A DNA stretch of 64,000 bases, taken from NCBI GenBank assembly GCA_964016885.1, contig OZ024752.1, positions 44,082,001 to 44,146,000 of the forward strand, written 5' to 3'. The notes beneath the pieces are model-generated. The model saw only the letters and a program-made list of their open reading frames with translations. It did not search any database and was not told the DNA's origin. The number at the start of each line of letters is the position of its first letter. Positions within the stretch are counted from its first letter, which is position 1. The stretch comes from Eledone cirrhosa (taxonomy: Eukaryota). A program made the translations under genes and the position numbers. Below, piece after piece: positions 5,490 to 48,833 of this stretch.

Positions 5490-18399
<12,910 letters not shown>

Positions 18400-37488: not shown

Positions 37489-37497
37489 TCCTTTTCC
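37489..37497 (+). promoter_or_regulatory. TCT/5'TOP initiator of RPS24
   Basis: Pyrimidine tract TCCTTTTCC about 25-30 nt upstream of the ATG, typical of ribosomal-protein genes. Confidence 0.7.
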
Positions 37498-37521
37498 GGA
37501 ACCTGTACAAGTCCGTCAATC

Positions 37522-40500
37522 ATGGTAAGCTTGCTTTTCTTTTTGAATCTGTGGCGATCGTAGTTTTTTAAAGTATTTTTTTTGTCTATTTATGTTAGGT
37601 TTAATTAATTAACAGTTTAACTTTTCAATAATCGAGATTTTACATTAAAAGGATGATAATTAGCTATACCTTTTACGTTTATTTCTCATTTTTGTACCAC
37701 TCGTCGCCATTTTAGTGTTATGCATGTGTTGTATATGTTTAAATATTCTTCATAATTGTACACAGTCTTTGATAAAGTCGGTGAAAAGCGACATAATTAA
37801 GATATTAAATGATCTAGTTGTGTTTACTATACAGTGGAAACATCTGCCAACTTAAATTAGAAAGTATGGAAGCGGCTTTTTAAATTATTTAAACTTGTTT
37901 CGAAATAAGTAAAAATAATTTTAAAAGCACGTGTTAGATCGTCAAAATTAATAGTTTATTGTAAGTTTATTATTCTACAAGACCTGGCTATACAGTATAT
38001 AAAATCAGTTTATTATCAGATCATCTTTGGTGGTACTCCAAGATTTGGCAGTGATCAGCTTTTATTTTCTGGTGTTTTACAGTAAATAATTTGTTAGGGT
38101 TAAATAAATCTGGAATATCACAGATATAGAACTTCTCTACTGATTTCACTATTACACCGATCGAAACATTTCTAAACTACACAACAAATAGTGGGATCTT
38201 TATTATACGAATAGGTTACAGAGCATAGACTGGGAGTCTATTTTACAGGGACCGGCTACATAGCCTCTTCCTTTATTATAATGAATGCTTTTCTCCCATT
38301 GTAGAATTTTCTGTGAAACATTTTCTAGCTCCTGACTTTTCAACTTTTACATTTTAAAACTTCCTTATTTGAGGGTATATACACTCAAGTAAGTGTGTAT
38401 AATGTATATACACACTTTGATTACCTGTACAGGTAAATATATTAGAATGCTGTTGAGGTGTGGATACATTTTTGGGAACTGTGTGTATATATATATGTAC
38501 ATTATAATATTGGAAGTTCGATTTGCAGCCTTTTAAAATGTGTTTCTATATCGATCAGGCGATCGGATCCGGACTCTTAATCGACAATTGTAAAAAGGTG
38601 TCGGGATCCGATCACTTAATCAAACCAGAGCTGATCGATATAGAAACAGTTGTAATATCGCCATAAAAGAGATGTTACGTGTTATTGGCTTCATTTGATC
38701 TTTTTTCCATCTAAGTTGTCTACTTAAAACGAAAGAAGGCCATTTTATGAACCTTTCAAAAGATGATGTCCATATTTGGGGGGAGTTTAATATAAGATGT
38801 AAACCTTAACTAATTTCGGGGTCTTTCTATCCCTTCAACTCCTCCATTTCAGGCTGAGAGTGCAGCTACTATCCGCACCAGGAAATTCTTAACAAACCGT
38901 TTATTGTGCAGAAAACAGATGGTGAGTAGAATTATTTCACTTTGGTGGATTGGCAGAATCGGTAGAGCGTCGAACATATAGAGTTACGGCCCTTTGCGTT
39001 CTGAATTCAAATTCCGCCGAGGTTTTAAAGTACCTGTAATGCATTGGTGTCGATTAAGTCGACTTCCCCTCCCTTGTGTCTATATAAGAAATCGTCATTA
39101 CAAACCGAGTCGGTAGAGCGTCGGACGTTTTACACAGTTACTGCCCTTGTTCTGAGTTCGATTCCCACCGATTGACGTCCAGTTTCCCTCACTGTCGTAG
39201 GTCTATACTACATGAGCTGGATGATGAATTAATACAGATACTTCCTACATGATTCCCATGTGGCAATACATTGAGTCACTCCAGGTACAGCTGATACTAT
39301 GGGCATGTGGTTCTTCTGGAAACAAGGGGGCCTCAGGAATAAGTGGGTGAAGAAGTAATACATTGTTGACTTAAGGGTCCGCTGTCTTGGTTGTATTGTA
39401 CATTTGGGAATTCTTTCCAATCAATTTCTCGAGTGTTTATTTAACATTGGATGTTCTCCTTCACATCTCTCACCTGTAAGATGCTATATTTACACCACAG
39501 TATGTCTTCGTGACATACTGTGGTATTAATATTACAATAGCTACATTAAACTACTTCATCTAATCGAACCCCTTGGAATATTTGTCCTAGTGGTTTCGCA
39601 ACTGTTGTGACATTATTACTAATATATATATATATATATGTGTGTGTATATATATATATATATAGGGTTGTTGGCTTTGTAATAGCTGTGTTTTAGTTAC
39701 TTTGGTGGCACTACAACGGAATTGGCTGTCAGAAGTGAAAGTAGAAGAATGTGACGTCAATCGTCAACCTTCGTTTATTTCCGTATCACCACCACCACCA
39801 CCATGTGTAAATAAATAGTTTAGCGTAATCGATTTGTTTCCATTCCGAAGCAGTAACGCTTCGAATATTTCAATAAATATTAACGAGTTACTTATGAATT
39901 TCTAAGAGATACACTTATTAAAAATACTTTCATTGCATAGTTCCGTTCGTAAAGGCTTTAATTTACTGTACTACTTGGGAACCTTTTAATAACATACAGG
40001 ATTAAGAAAATAAATTCAACATCTCTAGTTTAATAATTATAACTGCTTCTCGTATTGATGTCCAATGAGTACCAAATAACCACGTAATTTTTCAGAGTTA
40101 TGGATGGTACAATTAAAACAAAACGATAATATACAATCTTATTTAACATGTGAATTAAAAACCACACTATCTGTTACAATTGTAATTAACGTGTAAGCAA
40201 AAGCTTAGATATTAACTTACCCAAGGAAATAACAATAAAGCATATCGATGTAAGTGGAGTTAACTTTCGCCAATCTGCTACAGCTACATTCACGATACGA
40301 GATTTCTGTGAAATCCCCATGGCTAAATCTTCTTTTGCCCCAAAATACAATATGTCAATTATTTGTTCACACTTCAATTTACTATTTTCTAGAAATGTGC
40401 CTTTTCTAACACATAGTAGCGGTAGGGCTGGAAATATCACGATGATTAATTCCATTTACGCTGGAGTGTAATGTATGTTTCCTCTGGAAACAAGGAGCCT

Positions 40501-43500
40501 CTCAGGAATAAGTGGGTGAAGAAGTAATACATTGTTGACTTAAGGGTCCGCTGTCTTAGTTGTATTGTACATTTGGGAAATATTGGTCCTCTTCTTTCCA
40601 ATCAATTTCTCGAGTGTTTAACATTGAATGTTCTCCTTCACATCTCTCACCTGTAAGATGCTATATTTACACCACAGTATGTCTTAGTGACATACTGTGG
40701 TATTAATATTACAATAGCTACATTAAACTACTTCATCTAATCGAACCCCTTGGAATATTTGTCCTAGTGGTTTCGCAACTGTTGTGACATTATTACTAAT
40801 ATATATGTGTGTGTGTGTATATATATTGGGTTGTTGGCTTTGTAATAGCTGTGTTTTAGTTACTTTGGTAATGGAAGGGTTGACTTAACAGCAGAAAAAT
40901 ATCTAGAAAGGGACTTAAGTCAAATGTTTACAGTATTGTTAGTATTAGGCCATTGTAAAACTTTAAAGTTTTAAGGGCTAATATTAAACGTGATACAGGC
41001 ATTGTGCTGTTTTGATGTAGCTTCATATTGTATTCATTCATTTCATTTTATGTCCACTTTCCCTGCTTGCAAGGGTGGGACAGGAACTGATTCTGGCTTG
41101 ATTTCTACAGCTGGATGCCCTTCCTAACATCAACCTCATTTACAATGAGTGCTGGGTGCTTTTTTCCGTGGCACCTCCACGACCACTTTGCAGTGGAATG
41201 ATAGGGACCTCATTCCCTATCATCTCATTTCTACAGCTGAGTAAACTGGAGCAATGTGAAATAAAGTGTCTTGCTCAAGGAAACAACACATCACCCGGTC
41301 TGAGAATTGAACTCACAACCTTTCGATTGCAAGGCCAATGCTCTAACCACTAACCCATGTGCCTCCATATATAGCACTTAATGTATTGCTTGTAGTACTC
41401 AATATAACTTTGTGGAGAAATAAGTTTAATTCTACTGTTAGAACAGTAGACTTCTCTTTCTAGCAAGTTTAGAAGCTATCTCCATGGCTTTTTTCCTGTT
41501 TAGCCTCTTCCCTTGTCTTCTCAATTATTGAAGGCACTCATATACTATTGTAGTACTCTCACTTTATAAAATCATATGCTTTGTGTGTTTGGAATTCTTA
41601 AACAATGCTATTTCACCCCACATTGCCTTCCTATCGGATATAATGTGGACTTATATCTAAAATAGCTACATTAATTACTTCAAAAATCGAGCTACTTTTG
41701 ATATATTCTTGAGTGGTTCCGAGAATGTTGTGACAGCTTAAGTGTGTTCACTTGGTTTTTATCGATGTTTCTTAACTCTTTTAGTTATCACAAGGATTGT
41801 TTAGTTGTAGTTCTCATGTTTAATATATACCTGTACATGTCTGAGGAAAGTTTCACACTTTTAGGAATTTATCTCTCTACACCGTCATTTATATAAAATA
41901 ATTGGTCAGTGTTCTCCCTGTTCTATGTATGGTCTGCTGGTGTCCTTGTTCCCTTTCAATATCAAATTGCTTGGGTTTATACAGTACTAAGTTGATATCT
42001 AAATTATCAGATTTAATACTAATGAGGTTTGGGGAGGGTTCTTTTTCAATTTACCCAATTTTATGGGACTTCATAGTACACTAGTATGTATTAGTACAAA
42101 TTAGTAGTGAAGAAATCTGACACTATCATAACTGGTGGTTGTAATAGTTACATTGCATGGTTATTTGTGAATCCCTTTTATTTCCAGTCAATTTCTTCTT
42201 TTTATTTGTAACTTGGGAAGGTGACTTTCTTTTATCTGACTTTTTCAAATTTAATGAGTTCTAGCTTTGGAAAACAATTTGAATACCTTGAAACCAACTT
42301 GGCCCTCACCTGTAAGATGCTATATTTACACCACGGTATGTCTTCGTGACATACTGTGGCATTAATATTACAATAGCTACATTAAACTACTTCATCTAAT
42401 CGAACCACTTGGAATATTTGTCCTAGTGGTTTCGCAACTGTTGTGACATTATTACTAATATATATATATATATATATCAAATTGTGTTGTTGGCTTTGTA
42501 ACGGTCTGTGATGATTGAGTTGAAAATATCAATCGGTTTGCTGTTTCGTACTTTGCAACACTCTTGTTAACGCAGTTTCATGTTGTGTAGAAATTTGAGC
42601 TTATGTACTACATTACCTGTTTGCTGGTACGATTCAATAGTTGTGGGGACATAAGTTATACTAACGCAAGATCAAATGTGTCATTTTTACAACAGTGCTG
42701 TCTTATGGCTTCTATCAAATTTAGTGACATCACTGTCAGTGGCTTGTTCCTACTAAACTGATTAGCTTCTTGTATGTGTGTTTGGAATTATTCTTATACA
42801 TCTGTTGATGCTATTTCACCCCACATTGCCTTCCTATCGGATATAATGTGGACTTATATCTAAAATAGCTACATTAATTACTTCAAAAATCGAGCTACTT
42901 TTGATATATTCTTGAGTGGTTCCGAGAATGTTGTGACAGCTTAAGTGTGTTCACTTGGTTTTTATCGATGTTTCTTAACTCTTTTAGTTATCACAAGGAT
43001 TGTTTAGTTGTAGTTCTCATGTTTAATATATACCTGTACATGTCTGAGGAAAGTTTCACACTTTTAGGAATTTATATCTCTCTACACCGTCATTTATATA
43101 AAATAATTGGTCAGTGTTCTCCTTGTTCTATGTATGGTCTGCTGGTGTCCTTGTTCCCTTTCAATATCAAATTGCTTGGGTTTATACAGTACTAAGTTGA
43201 TATCTAATGAGGTTTGGGGAGGGTTTTTTTTTTTCAATTTACCCAATTTTATGGGACTTCATAGTACACTAGTATGTATTAGTACAAATTAGTAGTGAAG
43301 AAATCTGACACTATCATAACTGGTGGTTGTAATAGTTACATTGCATGGTTATTTGTGAATCCCTTTTATTTCCAGTCAATTCCTTCTTTTTATTTGTAAC
43401 TTGGGAAGGTGACTTTCTTTTATCTGACTTTTTCAAATTTAATGAGTTCTAGCTTTGGAAAGCAATTTGAATACCTTGAAACCAACTTGGCCCTCACCTG

Positions 43501-46500
43501 TAAGATGCTATATTTACACCACAGTATGTCTTCGTGACATACTGTGGCATTAATATTACAATAGCTACATTAAACTACTTCATCTAATCGAACCACTTGG
43601 AATATTTGTCCTAGTGGTTTCGCAACTGTTGTGACATTATTACTAATATATATATATATATATCAAATTGTGTTGTTGGCTTTGTAACTGTCTGTGATGA
43701 TTGAGTTGAAAATATCAATCGGTTTGCTGTTTCGTACTTTGCAACACTCTTGTTAACGCAGTTTCATGTTGTGTAGAAATTTGAGCTTATGTACTACATT
43801 ACCTGTTTGCTGGTACGATTCAATAGTTGTGGGGACATAAGTTATACTAACGCAAGATCAAATGTGTCATTTTTACAACAGTGCTGTCTTATGGCTTCTA
43901 TCAAATTTAGTGACATCACTGTCAGTGGCTTGTTCCTACTAAACTGATTAGCTTCTTGTATGTGTGTTTGGAATTATTCTTATACATCTGTTGATGCTAT
44001 TTCACCCCACATTGCCTTCCTATAGGATATAATGTGGACTTATATCTAAATAGCTACATTAATTACTTCAAAAATCGAGCTACTTTTGATATATTCTTGA
44101 GTGGTTCCGAGAATGTTGTGACAGCTTAGGTGTGTTCACTTGGTTTTTATCGATGTTTCTTAACTCTTTTAGTTATCACAAGGATTGTTTAGTTGTAGTT
44201 CTCATGTTTAATATATACCTGTACATGTCTGAAGAAAGTTTCACACTTTTAGGAATTTATATCTCTCTACACCGTCATTTATATAAAATAATTGGTCAGT
44301 GTTCTCCCTGTTCTATGTATGGCCTGCTGGTGTCCTTGTTCCCTTTCAATATCAAATTGCTTGGGTTTATACAGTACTAAGTTGATATCTAAATTATCAG
44401 ATTTAATACTAATGAGGTTTGGGGAGGGTTCTTTTTCAATTTACCCAATTTTATGGGACTTCATAGTACACTAGTATGTATTAGTACAAATTAGTAGTGA
44501 AGAAATCTGACACTATCATAACTGGTGGTTGTAATAGTTACATTGCATGGTTATTTGTGAATCCCTTTTATTTCCAGTCAATTCCTTCTTTTTATTTGTA
44601 ACTTGGGAAGGTGACTTTCTTTTATCTGACTTTTTCAAATTTAATGAGTTCTAGCTTTGGAAAGCAATTTGAATACCTTGAAACCAACTTGGCCCTCACC
44701 TGTAAGATGCTATATTTACACCACGGTATGTCTTCGTGACATACTGTGGCATTAATATTACAATAGCTACATTAAACTACTTCATCTAATCGAACCACTT
44801 GGAATATTTGTCCTAGTGGTTTCGCAACTGTTGTGACATTATTACTAATATATATATATATATATATCAAATTGCGTTGTTGGCTTTGTAACGGTCTGTG
44901 ATGATTGAGTTGAAAATATCAATCGGTTTGCTGTTTCGTACTTTGCAACACTCTTGTTAACGCAGTTTCATGTTGTGTAGAAATTTGAGCTTATGTACTA
45001 CATTACCTGTTTGCTGGTACGATTCAATAGTTGTGGGGACATAAGTTATACTAACGCAAGATCAAATGTGTCATTTTTACAACAGTGCTGTCTTATGGCT
45101 TCTATCAAATTTAGTGACATCACTGTCAGTGGCTTGTTCCTACTAAACTGATTAGCTTCTTGTATGTGTGTTTGGAATTATTCTTATACATCTGTTGATG
45201 CTATTTCACCCCACATTGCCTTCCTATAGGATATAATGTGGACTTATATCTAAAATAGCTACATTAATTACTTCAAAAATCGAGCTACTTTTGATATATT
45301 CTTGAGTGGTTCCGAGAATGTTGTGACAACTTTAGGTGTGTCCACTTTTAGTTATGACAAGGATTTGTCATCATTTCACGTCCATTTTTTTCAGCGTTTG
45401 CATGGGTTGGATGGCATTGTTTTTACAAATGACTTGACCTAAATCCATGGCAAACTCTGCTAAAGATGTGTTTCAAAGATGGTTTCTATCTAGCGAATTC
45501 CAGTTATAGCACTTTGGTTGACCCAGGACTGCTATAGATTAATACTTCACTTTGATATTAAATCCAAAACCAAACAGGTTTGTGTATAATTGTGGTCATT
45601 CCAGTTTGTCAAATATTTATTTATAAACCAGAAAATCGAAATTTCGTTGATCCCCTGTTCTGACAGATGCTATGTTTACACCACAGTATGTCTTAATGAC
45701 ATACTGTGGTATTAATATTACAATAGCTACATTAAACTACTTCATCTAATCGAACCCCTTGGAATATTTGTCCTAGTGGTTTCGCAACTGTTGTGACATT
45801 ATTGTTGTTTTACATCTCCTTTCCCACTAATTCTTAATGTCTTCTTCTACATAAAACATTGAAAATTTGTTTACAATTAAATATATTATAAACATTTGAA
45901 TTAACAATCAAACCATCTCTGATAGTTAATGAAAATATCTGGCAAAGTAGGACTTGAGCTAGTCACTTGTTTAGTCCCCAGGTAATTGAAGATGGTGTCA
46001 TACCCAGTGATTGGTGTAACATTGGCATTAAACTGGTGCATCAAGTTATCAGCATAACTGATTAGGAATAAAAATTATATTAGAAAAAATGCAGTTTGTG
46101 GCAGCATGTACCTGTGGTACCTGTCTCTTAGTGAGATAACTGCAGAAGTCTGTAAGAACAAGCCACTATATCTGTTAAGAAATCTAGATGTTTTGGGAGC
46201 AAGTTGGTGTCCACCACTCTTATTGTAGAAATATAAAGTTGTATGGAGAGAAACAAATCAGGCATTGTTTGTTGGACGTAACATTGATGTATATAAACCA
46301 GTTGAGATAAAAGCAATGAGATGTGCCGAGAGCTGCACTGGTACAGACATGTAATGGTCTGTGGATAATGATTGGTAAAATAGACAGAGAATGGTATTGG
46401 TTTTAACTATGACTGGTCTAACAGGATTTGGTTGGTTATAAGTCGTTTTATTCTAGTCTGCATTATTTTTTATTGATACCATCTTGAGATGCTAATGAAT

Positions 46501-48833
46501 GACATTTTCTTTTAGGTTGTAGATGTCATACATCCTGGACGAGCTACTGTTCCTAAGACAGAGATACGTGAAAAATTAGCATCTAAGTACAAAACTACCC
46601 CAGATCTGATTTTCTGCTTTGGATTCCGAACACAATTTGGTGGTGGAAGAAGTACGGGATTTGCTATGATATACGACACATTAGATTTTGCAAAGAAATT
46701 TGAGCCTAAACACAGATTAGCAAGGGTAAGTGGGTATTTTGTTTTTCTCTAAATTTTAAATACTTCATTATATATGTATTATTTTCATTTAAGATAACTT
46801 TTCAAGTATAGTTATTGGCAGTTTACTCAATACTGGATTATATTAAAAAAACACATTGTTATGAAAATATTTAATGAACAACATGGTCTTTTCTTTTAGC
46901 ATGGTCTCTATGAGAAGGGAAAGATAAGCAGAAAACAGCGTAAAGAAAGAAAGAATAGACAAAAGAAAGTACGAGGTGTGGCTAAGACCAAAATTGGTGC
47001 TGGCAAGAAGGTGAGTTTTACCAAGATATTGTTTCTGTTATGTAACTTAATGATCATCAATACTTTTTCTATTTAGTGTTGTACATAATACTGTATTTTG
47101 GTCATTTTACTTCATGAAATATTTTGTTTCATTTTTAGAAAAAATAAGATTCTACTATTTCTATATCTGGTAAGATGGTTATATCTTTGTTTGGTGACCA
47201 CCAGTGTTTCTTTGATGTTGTCTTTCACTTTTCAATGTTTTCACATCTAAATTACTCATAAATAACCTCCCAGCACCAGGCTACTTTTCTAGCATAGATT
47301 TTTTTTTTCTTTTACAAATTAAACCTTTTCATGTCTGTTCAGTTTATATCCTACACTAATGAAGAATTGCATCGACAATATGCTGTCTATATTGTTAGAT
47401 CAATTCTTTTTGCAGCTTTGTTGGAAACTCTTTTTATTGCTAAACCCTTTGGCCATAAATTGGAAGGGCTTGGGTTGAAGCACCCTTGCCCAGAGACACA
47501 AGCATTGGCTGTATGTGATGGGGTTCATGACTAGTCAGTGCTCCTACACCTGTATCTTTGAGATCCATGAGTACACTATCAGAGGTTCATGAATTGTATA
47601 AAACTGATTTATAGTCTTCAGAGATTTCTTTGTTTATTTTTCTACAGGCATGAAAAGGTTTGACTTGTTGTATGTTTCTCTTTCTGCGTGTTACATGCAG
47701 AATATGGCTGTTGCACTTTTTGTCATTAGACCTTGATGTTCTTCATAAACAGTTCTTGTTATGAAGAGCTGAGGTTTGATGAGTCTAAGGTGATCTAAAC
47801 CAGACCAAATAATGTTTTGTGTATGTGAATATATATATATATATATATACACACACTATATATCATGATTTGTTTGAATACTTCAGTAAAAGGTGTATTT
47901 AATGGTCAATGTCCAAATGCCATATTCTGTATGTAGCTCAACATTTAACTCACAGAGAGTATGTGACAGATATTGTAGACTATAGAAATGGCTCTACTTT
48001 ATGATCACCTGCTCTCATATATATTGTTTTTGTTTGGAGTGATAACTAATCTGTTGTTTGTTTACACAATTTTATCATAGAATATTTATATTTTGTGATA
48101 AAACCAAAATTCTGTTTGGGTGTTTTTTAAACTTTAATATACTCAGCCTATAATTAATTAATGTGGAGATGGGGGCTGGTATTCCTTAATGTTAAAACTG
48201 TTGGCTCACATTTAACCCTTCCCCTATCTCACATTTGAGATGGTGGAGGGGTTAAATTATCTGCTATTTAACAGCAAACTAAACTAACATGACGTTTAGG
48301 GGTTCTTATCAGAATACAATATTTTAAGTGTGTTGATAATTTAACTCTTCACATCCTGGCACTAAATGAGCAAATAAGTTTTTAATACTACAAATTTTCA
48401 AAACAATCTGTCCACTAATAAAAAAAATAAGCATTTGAATTAATAACCTAGTTTTAAATATTTTTTGCTAAATCATTAAAGGATGTTAAAAATACATCAA
48501 TAATTTTATAATTTTATGGCGTTACAGTATTGTTCTCCAACTAAATAATATCAACATCTTGTTGATTTGATATTATGTGAGATAAAGCCTTCATTGTGAA
48601 ATGTAAATGCTAAAGAGTTAAAGATATTAATTGTAATATTTTCATTAGTATAGCATGCTATTGGTTGGTGTTTTGAAAGTGTGTCTTTTATATATTTATA
48701 ACATTTTACTACTGAGATCATTACTGATTATATCTTTATTTCCTAATCAGTGCTACTTTTAACTGACACTATTTTATTGTTTAAACTATATTGTTCCTAC
48801 TTAAGATTTGTTTTCTTTTTTTCTTTCTAGTGA
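37522..48833 (+). CDS. RPS24: 40S ribosomal protein S24 (eS24), 131-133 aa depending on 3' splicing
   Basis: Exons 37522-37524 (ATG only), 38853-38921 ([23 protein letters not shown]), 46516-46725 ([14 protein letters not shown]...[35 protein letters not shown]), 46900-47010 (HGLYEK...[13 protein letters not shown]...GAGKK). These are followed by cassette 47139-47169 (KK-stop) and/or a terminal exon starting with TGA at 48831. AATAAA at 48879. Confidence 0.97.
38541..38648. repeat. 108-bp fold-back (MITE-like) element in RPS24 intron 1
   Basis: Perfect 18-bp terminal inverted repeat TGTTTCTATATCGATCAG/CTGATCGATATAGAAACA, plus inner GATCGGATCC/GGATCCGATC. Confidence 0.8.
39481..39615 (+). ncRNA. 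Candidate box H/ACA snoRNA, type A copy 1
   Basis: Hairpin (GCTAT/ATAGC base; ACCACAGTATGTC/GACATACTGTGGT upper stem), H box ACATTA, second hairpin, then ACA+3 nt. About 135 nt, sense in a ribosomal-protein intron. Confidence 0.78.
40658..40792 (+). ncRNA. Candidate H/ACA snoRNA, type A copy 2
   Basis: As copy 1; differs in the hairpin-1 loop (TTAGT). Confidence 0.78.
41031..41366 (-). mobile_element. SINE family 2
   Basis: Near-identical to 30440-30782. Confidence 0.87.
41605..41738 (+). ncRNA. Candidate H/ACA snoRNA, type B copy 1
   Basis: GCTATTT/AAATAGC base, CCACATT/AATGTGG upper stem, H box ACATTA, second hairpin GAGCTACT/AGTGGTTC, ACA+3. Confidence 0.75.
42317..42451 (+). ncRNA. Candidate H/ACA snoRNA, type A copy 3
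   Basis: An A>G change in the hairpin-1 stem keeps pairing as G-U; a C>A change perfects the hairpin-2 upper stem. Confidence 0.78.
42808..42941 (+). ncRNA. Candidate H/ACA snoRNA, type B copy 2
   Basis: Matches B1. Confidence 0.75.
43505..43639 (+). ncRNA. Candidate H/ACA snoRNA, type A copy 4
   Basis: As the other A copies. Confidence 0.78.
43994..44126 (+). ncRNA. Candidate H/ACA snoRNA, type B copy 3
   Basis: As B1, with a loop change and a 1-nt deletion in an A run. Confidence 0.73.
44707..44841 (+). ncRNA. Candidate H/ACA snoRNA, type A copy 5
   Basis: As A3. Confidence 0.78.
45198..45331 (+). ncRNA. Candidate H/ACA snoRNA, type B copy 4
   Basis: As B1. Similarity to the other units falls off just after the ACA. 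Confidence 0.75.
45667..45801 (+). ncRNA. Candidate H/ACA snoRNA, type A copy 6
   Basis: Near-identical to A1 but in unrelated flanks, which defines the conserved RNA boundaries. Confidence 0.8.

Follow-up and report, generated by a model that had tools for sequence, protein, structure and literature searches.

Does a single intron of the ribosomal protein gene RPS24 in the cephalopod Eledone cirrhosa encode a whole family of box H/ACA small nucleolar RNAs (snoRNAs), and how would so many of them be freed from one lariat? We analyzed a 64,000-nt window of its genome (GenBank assembly GCA_964016885.1, contig OZ024752.1, positions 44,082,001 to 44,146,000, forward strand); positions below are those of the window unless another contig or locus is named. 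Intron 2 of RPS24 contained ten elements, six of type A and four of type B, each 134–136 nt long and all on the sense strand. Spacers of 334–1,041 nt separated them, and their order was A A B A B A B A B A (Table 1). An earlier note on this DNA, made by a model from the letters alone, had placed six A and four B copies in this intron and on this strand, and all ten were found where it had put them. It is fairly probable that the ten elements encode a new box H/ACA guide snoRNA family in an intronic cluster of the Drosophila type, released as 135-nt monomers.

Box anatomy of the elements and their host intron

The layout hairpin, ACATTA, hairpin, ACA, as the earlier note had described it, was present in 10/10 copies. 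ACATTA stood one base after hairpin 1, and ACA stood directly after hairpin 2. The chance of finding both boxes in those slots was roughly estimated as ~0.003. RNAalifold was run on eight of the ten copies and returned, unprompted, a hairpin-hinge-hairpin-tail fold. The first hairpin had a lower stem of 5 bp, a pocket and an upper stem; after the ACATTA hinge came a second lower stem, pocket and upper stem, and then the ACA. The second lower stem, UACUUCA/UGUUGUG, contained two U-U mismatches. Box H/ACA snoRNAs are typically about 120–160 nt long, and the elements agreed with them in size (134–136 nt), in sense orientation and in their RPS24 host intron.

Types A and B were 71–75% identical over their whole length. 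Their lower stems were invariant (10/10 and 14/14 columns), as were the ACA (3/3) and the H box itself, within a hinge that kept 8/10 columns. The upper stems kept 17/24 and 12/16 columns, the pockets 10/20 and 7/13 (17/33 together) and the loops 1/7 and 6/15 (7/22 together). In the tail after ACA, where the 3' end of the RNA is predicted, 0/3 columns were kept. A/B identity started 3 nt before the first stem and stopped at ACA. Judged by this identity, A and B are two subtypes of a single family, and not the two paralogous families of the earlier note. In the 33-pair structure, 94% of cells were paired, compared with 29–44% in slid controls; two pairs were changed on both sides and six on one side.

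The alignment of A1 and A6 extended 1 nt before and 2 nt past the predicted ends, and A6 was 96–99% identical to the other A copies inside the element. Flank identities of 0.56 and 0.47 were at background (0.55 ± 0.03). These results bore out that A6 is near-identical to A1 in unrelated flanks and that conservation stops near the RNA ends. Six columns varied among the A copies. Two were in loops, one was a kept pair (A-U to G-U), one was a pair versus a mismatch and two were in the 5' pocket. This distribution corrects the proposal that variants mostly fall in loops or preserve pairing. For the further proposal, that a C-to-A change perfects a stem, the direction is more likely the opposite. 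The paired A at 45757 was seen in a DNA run (X1), an RNA run (X4) and a run from a second species (X5), so the C in this column is more likely a derived mismatch.

The five sense copies that were folded gave z-scores of −3.2 to −5.8. Two antisense strands folded as well (z −4.0 and −6.4), and the energy therefore does not fix the strand. The best fold of B was the H/ACA fold. The Rfam scan of the window gave 0 matches at threshold, the weak matches being at chance level (the best was mir-552, 23.9 bits, threshold 100), in line with the earlier suggestion that the RNAs are probably unannotated. The array did not match U17/SNORA73 (RF00045), and the U17 copies of this genome lie elsewhere.

RPS24 exons 1–3 had GT/AG ends and an in-frame translation. 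One spliced contig of X4 ran from exon 2 straight into exon 3 and on to exons 4 and 5, and this contig showed X4 to be RNA. The exon 2–exon 3 join and the 0 internal exon candidates (see below) indicated that the array copies have no exon between them. Transcription of RPS24 would start at the pyrimidine tract of exon 1.

Table 1. Positions of the elements, their boxes, the tandem repeat and the host gene in the window
Feature	Position	Strand	Remark
A1	39480..39615	+	H/ACA-like element
A2	40657..40792	+	A1 duplicate within a 400-nt block (39308-39706 vs 40476-40869, 90%)
B1	41604..41738	+	opens the tandem repeat
A3	42316..42451	+	H/ACA-like element
B2	42807..42941	+	H/ACA-like element
A4	43504..43639	+	H/ACA-like element
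B3	43993..44126	+	5' pocket one base shorter
A5	44706..44841	+	same sequence as A3
B4	45197..45331	+	closes the tandem repeat; kept in the second species
A6	45666..45801	+	flanks unique; 3' splice site 714 nt away
H box ACATTA	39543..39548	+	A1 given; identical in all ten
ACA box	39610..39612	+	A1 given; directly after the invariant lower stem UACUUCA/UGUUGUG
Tandem repeat	41582..45347	+	three 1.19-kb units (B, spacer, A, spacer) and a last B; 99.2-99.4% identical over aligned columns
RPS24 exon 1	37490..37524	+	pyrimidine tract, putative 5' terminal oligopyrimidine (5'TOP) start; ATG 37522-37524, then GT; frame shared with exon 2
RPS24 exon 2	38853..38921	+	AG/GT ends, translation; 3' end is the loose end of a spliced contig in X4
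RPS24 intron 2	38922..46515	+	GT..AG, 7,594 nt, host of the array
RPS24 exon 3	46516..46725	+	Pfam PF01282 Ribosomal_S24e, E 2.1e-30

Copy number, spread and conservation

Counting spacers, the three units of the tandem repeat, about 1,190 nt each, were set apart by 7, 8 and 9 substitutions. Seven of the ten elements (B1 to B4 and A3–A5) lie within this 1.19-kb repeat, and A1 and A2 lie in a duplicated block, so there are few independent contexts. Because the units are ~99% identical, spacers included, the likeness among those copies is uninformative on selection. Three contrasts do inform on it: A against B, A6 against the remaining A copies, and the second species. The array had been called recently amplified. 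The amplification is indeed recent, but the number ten largely reflects one 1.19-kb tandem triplication. In X1, contig depths were 42.3 for A, 28.2 for B, 25.7 for the unit spacer and 6.6–8 for single-copy intron, which fit six A and four B copies.

DNA searches of the 3.0-Gb genome found seven places for A and four for B, and all were in RPS24 intron 2 except one half copy; the numbers are minimum values, and distant paralogues may have escaped the searches. A 17-base pattern of the 3' hairpin matched the ten copies, the half copy and five other places, compared with four for the control. The five outside matches scored at most 11.6 bits with the model. A genome search with a 13-mer of the hinge was too loose to be used (161 matches versus 123 for the control). 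No A tail followed any of the ten copies. The earlier note had named dispersal in both orientations as the mark of a transposon; ten local sense copies and one half copy were found, with no dispersal. By these genome counts the elements are no transposon, because the genome has only the ten copies and one half copy.

The half copy (L007:1501-1620, contig C8) consisted of the 3' half of an A3–5-type element and ~40 nt of downstream intron flank, right behind a (GAT)n tail. It includes flank and therefore originated from DNA or precursor mRNA (pre-mRNA), not from a mature snoRNA. The word TGTTGTGACA was also present in local repeats, including a 61-bp satellite (L100/L101, contig C1, 59.01 Mb). 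The satellite unit is a hairpin ending in TGTTGTGACA, with the length and ends of the A 3' hairpin. This likeness is probably chance (model score 10.4 bits, E 1.7). Intron 2 also contained a piece of a very high-copy repeat just past A6 (45860-45910), with a depth in the thousands in three runs, and further repeat-like pieces at 38956-39171 and about 41040-41360.

The second species was compared through X5 over 44872-47200 at 80% likeness, and the results below refer to that part of the array. X5 contigs covered B4 and A6, whereas 5/6 neighbouring repeat-free spacer bins had zero or low depth (zero at 45028-45183 and 45418-45573). The 3' half of an A element, intron that aligned in part, and exon 3 all lay on one contig, indicating that the host intron is the same in the second species. 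The B piece differed at 2/115 nt and the A piece at 3/78 nt (5/193 together). The intron on the exon-3 contig differed at 32/332 nt, plus many gaps, and exon 3 differed at 5/209. Divergence of the elements was lower than that of the intron (Fisher p 0.002) and similar to that of exon 3 (p 1.0). Two further A pieces (3/75 and 5/88) were left out of this comparison because they overlapped. The earlier note had made its reading depend on conservation of boxes and stems in related species, and in this species the elements were conserved. Neither this check nor the one on dispersal refuted that reading.

The summed depth in X5 was ~112 over each element, compared with 15–21 for single-copy intron, suggesting that the second species has several copies of both A and B. 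X5 joints showed A and B adjacent with different spacers, one of at most about 50 nt. On these sequence comparisons (low divergence of the elements relative to the intron, depths and joints), selection acts on the modules, both species have the multi-copy state and the spacers turn over. One A contig of X5 lacked 6 nt at 45710-45715 (depth 23/216), which would give a symmetric 7+7 pocket fitting position U40 of U2. This gap may be slippage at a short repeat.

Metagenome contigs were also searched. The exact hinge-plus-tail pattern gave 0 matches. Over the best 80 of 129 RPS24 loci, no locus being identified as mollusc, neither nhmmer nor the covariance model returned a match below E 0.3. The Rfam scan of 20 of those 80 loci gave 0 matches, and BLAST among 24 introns of the RPS24 loci found no common sense-strand island. 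A hinge-like word in one locus (L028) was past the stop of the gene and had no hairpins; it was regarded as chance.

Candidate guide pockets, proposed release from the intron and alternative explanations

Targets were taken from the genome itself, namely 18S, 5.8S and 28S ribosomal RNA (rRNA) and the small nuclear RNAs (snRNAs) U1, U2, U5, U6, U11 and U12. Every U in these was scored for each pocket. A target U lies 15 ± 1 nt from the box, according to a passage of PMC8522698. The A 3' pocket paired around 28S U1117 (numbered on the L008 match) with 8+6 pairs, 11 Watson-Crick and 3 G-U, at 15 nt from ACA. Only 3/200 local shuffles reached this match. The site was the same in 3/3 ribosomal DNA copies and lies just after the D2 region. 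We propose, tentatively, that the A 3' pocket may guide pseudouridylation of 28S U1117. B is an orphan for now, about half its pocket bases being changed.

The top match of the A 5' pocket was U2 U40 (7+3 pairs), which was reached by 27/200 (A1) and 40/200 (A6) shuffles. No site in U1, U5, U6, U11 or U12 matched the pockets better than U2 U40. Other candidates were rejected. Perfect antisense words of 10 nt to 18S 570 and 28S 3790 fall within the upper stem, and chance alone would yield about one. 18S U573 (3+5 pairs) and 28S U2112 (joint A+B) failed the shuffle test. The scaRNAs, which are small RNAs specific to Cajal bodies, carry a Cajal body (CAB) box, ugAG, in the terminal loop. A CAB-like AG was in the right place of loop 1 in A2 only, and none was found in loop 2; by sequence, the elements have no consistent CAB box. 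Among the target genes, the 18S rRNA was 2,876 nt, and large-subunit matches were either 5,114 or about 6,340 nt long. The U2, U6, U5 and U1 genes were in long tandem arrays (contigs C3, C19, C9 and C2), and U12 gave a single match.

The RNA run X4 contained one 180-nt contig over A (depth 2.78) and none over B; depth was 2.04 on a piece of plain intron and 971 on exons. Such contigs show neither RNA ends nor levels, and they count neither way. A run of restriction-site associated DNA sequencing (X6) gave no useful cover. Six donors and one acceptor in intron 2 passed simple splice-site thresholds and yielded 0 candidate internal exons, with a crude scoring that would miss one real RPS24 acceptor (0.56). 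No strong recursive splice site was found in intron 2, and no common helix flanked the copies. Each tandem unit contained a 33-nt stretch (42188-42220, 43376-43408 and 44578-44610) running from a pyrimidine-rich CAG to a donor-like GTGACT, with an in-frame stop. These stretches were just below the thresholds (donor 6.5, like the real intron 2 donor) and, if used, would split the repeat into sub-introns.

We propose the following route. The elements lie on the sense strand of intron 2 and are therefore copied as part of the RPS24 pre-mRNA. By known H/ACA biology, dyskerin, NOP10 and NHP2 would load on and protect each module as a ribonucleoprotein (RNP). After splicing and debranching, the unprotected spacers of 334–1,041 nt would be cut without a conserved signal, and exonucleases would trim the pieces back to the RNPs. 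Signal-free cutting and trimming would be the simplest model because the spacers are unconserved. Subtype A is then predicted, with the reserve given above, to act on 28S U1117, and B would have no assigned target. Tandem duplication of the B+A unit, as read from the repeat, would have raised the copy number, with selection keeping the modules as spacers turn over.

Several points weigh against this reading. The mature RNA, its ends, its protein partner and the pseudouridine are predicted. A cleavage signal for monomer release was not found in the intron, and spacer cutting rests on the fly analogy. Type A RNA by itself gains about 2.6 kcal/mol from a fold in which ACA is buried, so A would presumably depend on its proteins to adopt the right structure. 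The two sides of the 5' pocket are unequal (7 versus 13 nt). In number of double-changed pairs, the structure does no better than shuffles (337/500), and covariation from the single A/B split amounts to consistency, not proof. After correction for four pockets, the 28S U1117 match stands at about 0.06; its pairing leaves 2–3 unpaired bases below the upper stem and is broken in B. Among the calls found in the fly Psi-seq table (PMC9997552), the corresponding fly uridine did not occur. The other three pockets were at chance (27, 120 and 177 of 200 shuffles), as were the joint A+B tests (36–200/200). The X1 run, whose depths fit the copy number, may be the same sample as the assembly. No homologue outside the two species was found in the metagenome contigs, including the best 80 of 129 RPS24 loci.

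Could the elements be relics of a small transposon or satellite, evolving neutrally and seemingly conserved only because of recent duplication and gene conversion? Seven copies do lie in a 99% identical tandem repeat, TGTTGTGACA recurs in the local repeats and satellite, and the genome keeps U1, U2, U5 and U6 in long tandem arrays. However, only one half copy exists elsewhere in 3.0 Gb, the pattern search gave 5 outside matches versus 4 in the control, all ten copies have one orientation, and divergence between species is four times lower in the elements than in the intron. The cross-species contrast has largely refuted this explanation already, and we regard it as highly improbable. Alternatively, the elements may act in cis in the RPS24 pre-mRNA as protein-binding or splicing-control structures, never becoming small RNAs, with the boxes coincidental. 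The small RNA product is predicted only, Rfam gave no match, three of the four pockets have no target and the family is confined to one gene, all of which would suit such a role. The box coincidence estimated above and a size right for the class speak for snoRNAs instead, and the limits of A/B identity coincide with the expected ends of a trimmed H/ACA RNA. A role in cis is decidedly unlikely. Guidance of snRNA modification, with the A 5' pocket directing U2 U40 pseudouridylation, would fit the top match of that pocket, the canonical spacing of the X5 contig that lacks 6 nt at 45710, and the fact that fly U2 has a guided site at position 40, as a passage of PMC3884663 has it. This explanation is very unlikely, as the shuffle test was not significant, six extra bases separate stem and guide in this genome, B cannot pair and the CAB-like loop AG is only in A2.

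The last alternative keeps the modules as H/ACA RNPs but does not, or not always, separate them. Trimming would stop at the outermost RNPs and leave snoRNA-ended RNAs of up to 6.3 kb with at most ten modules, like SLERT. Flies make monomers from clustered H/ACA genes, which argues for separation. They are the known exception among animals, their H/ACA genes being generally clustered in single introns (in the relevant part of PMC3089462). The spacers also are unconserved between the two species and differ in length, so a linker would have no conserved function. On the other side, animal introns as a rule carry a single snoRNA, which is freed by splicing, debranching and trimming, and in mammals two snoRNAs in one intron can leave a snoRNA-ended long noncoding RNA (sno-lncRNA) such as SLERT (both from a passage of PMC11028025). 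No internal exon, strong recursive site or common flanking helix was found in intron 2, a result that is qualified by the crude splice-site scoring. U17 occurs here one per intron, so clusters may not be the rule in this animal. Unseparated RNPs are unlikely in our judgment. A bolder version is decidedly improbable, namely that the intron yields a multi-module 6-kb snoRNA-ended RNA of at most ten H/ACA particles, with a length that changes by tandem duplication, and that the A guide fits a lineage-specific stretch of the cephalopod 28S rRNA, which is highly diverged. Release of guide snoRNAs as monomers is the reading that we retain.

Known systems and meaning

Box H/ACA snoRNAs in intronic clusters were reportedly described in Drosophila by Huang et al. 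in 2004. The RPS24 array resembles the fly clusters in that several H/ACA genes share an intron of a protein-coding host and that paralogous isoforms arose by local duplication (as given in part of PMC3089462). It differs in being in a mollusc, not an insect, in its spacers of 334–1,041 nt within 99%-identical kilobase tandem units and in lacking an Rfam match; monomers are predicted here. It shares its host class, sense orientation, two hairpins and H and ACA boxes with single H/ACA snoRNAs in ribosomal-protein introns, such as U17/SNORA73 of this genome. The host gene of U17 here is presumably RPLP0, from how its first coding exon reads. U17, by contrast, is 232 nt long, matches Rfam and has two copies in two successive introns, whereas the RPS24 family has ten copies in one. 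The two U17 copies lie in a region (L117:1501-1732 and L119:945-1176, 1859-1980, 7606-7739) with a weak SNORD22 match and a U11 gene nearby. As U17 is one per intron, the cluster is a property of the RPS24 locus and not of every H/ACA gene here, judging from this one control.

With the sno-lncRNA SLERT the array shares the producing condition, more than one snoRNA per intron (in a passage of PMC11028025). Known sno-lncRNAs have two terminal snoRNAs and a functional middle, whereas the array has ten modules and unconserved spacers and is known from DNA. Like the fly H/ACA scaRNAs pugU2-38/40/42 (in part of PMC3884663), the A 5' pocket can pair around U2 U40. Unlike them, it gave a match that was not significant, the elements have no consistent CAB box and the A 3' pocket misfits U2 position 42.

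In the giant squid, 41 H/ACA loci were counted, by homology to known families only (in a passage of PMC6962438). No report of the RPS24 array was found in the literature on octopus, cephalopod or mollusc snoRNAs or on RPS24 as a snoRNA host, though supplements of genome papers could list these RNAs. The parts of the literature searched did not explain by what route several H/ACA RNAs are freed from a single lariat in an animal. The long spacers and copy-specific variants make this locus suited to telling monomer release from sno-lncRNA formation. The significance would rise sharply if multi-module long RNAs, or a guide that co-varies with cephalopod 28S, proved true.

The elements are real and under selection, and they likely form an H/ACA family that is probably unannotated. 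Its arrangement is of a known type, and its copy number is inflated by recent tandem duplication. The family adds to the snoRNAs one that is absent from Rfam. It suggests that the fly-type clustered H/ACA layout also arose in a cephalopod, where U17 stays at one copy per intron. With near-identical tandem units, two subtypes with diverged pockets and another layout in the second species, the array is in the middle of birth-and-death evolution.

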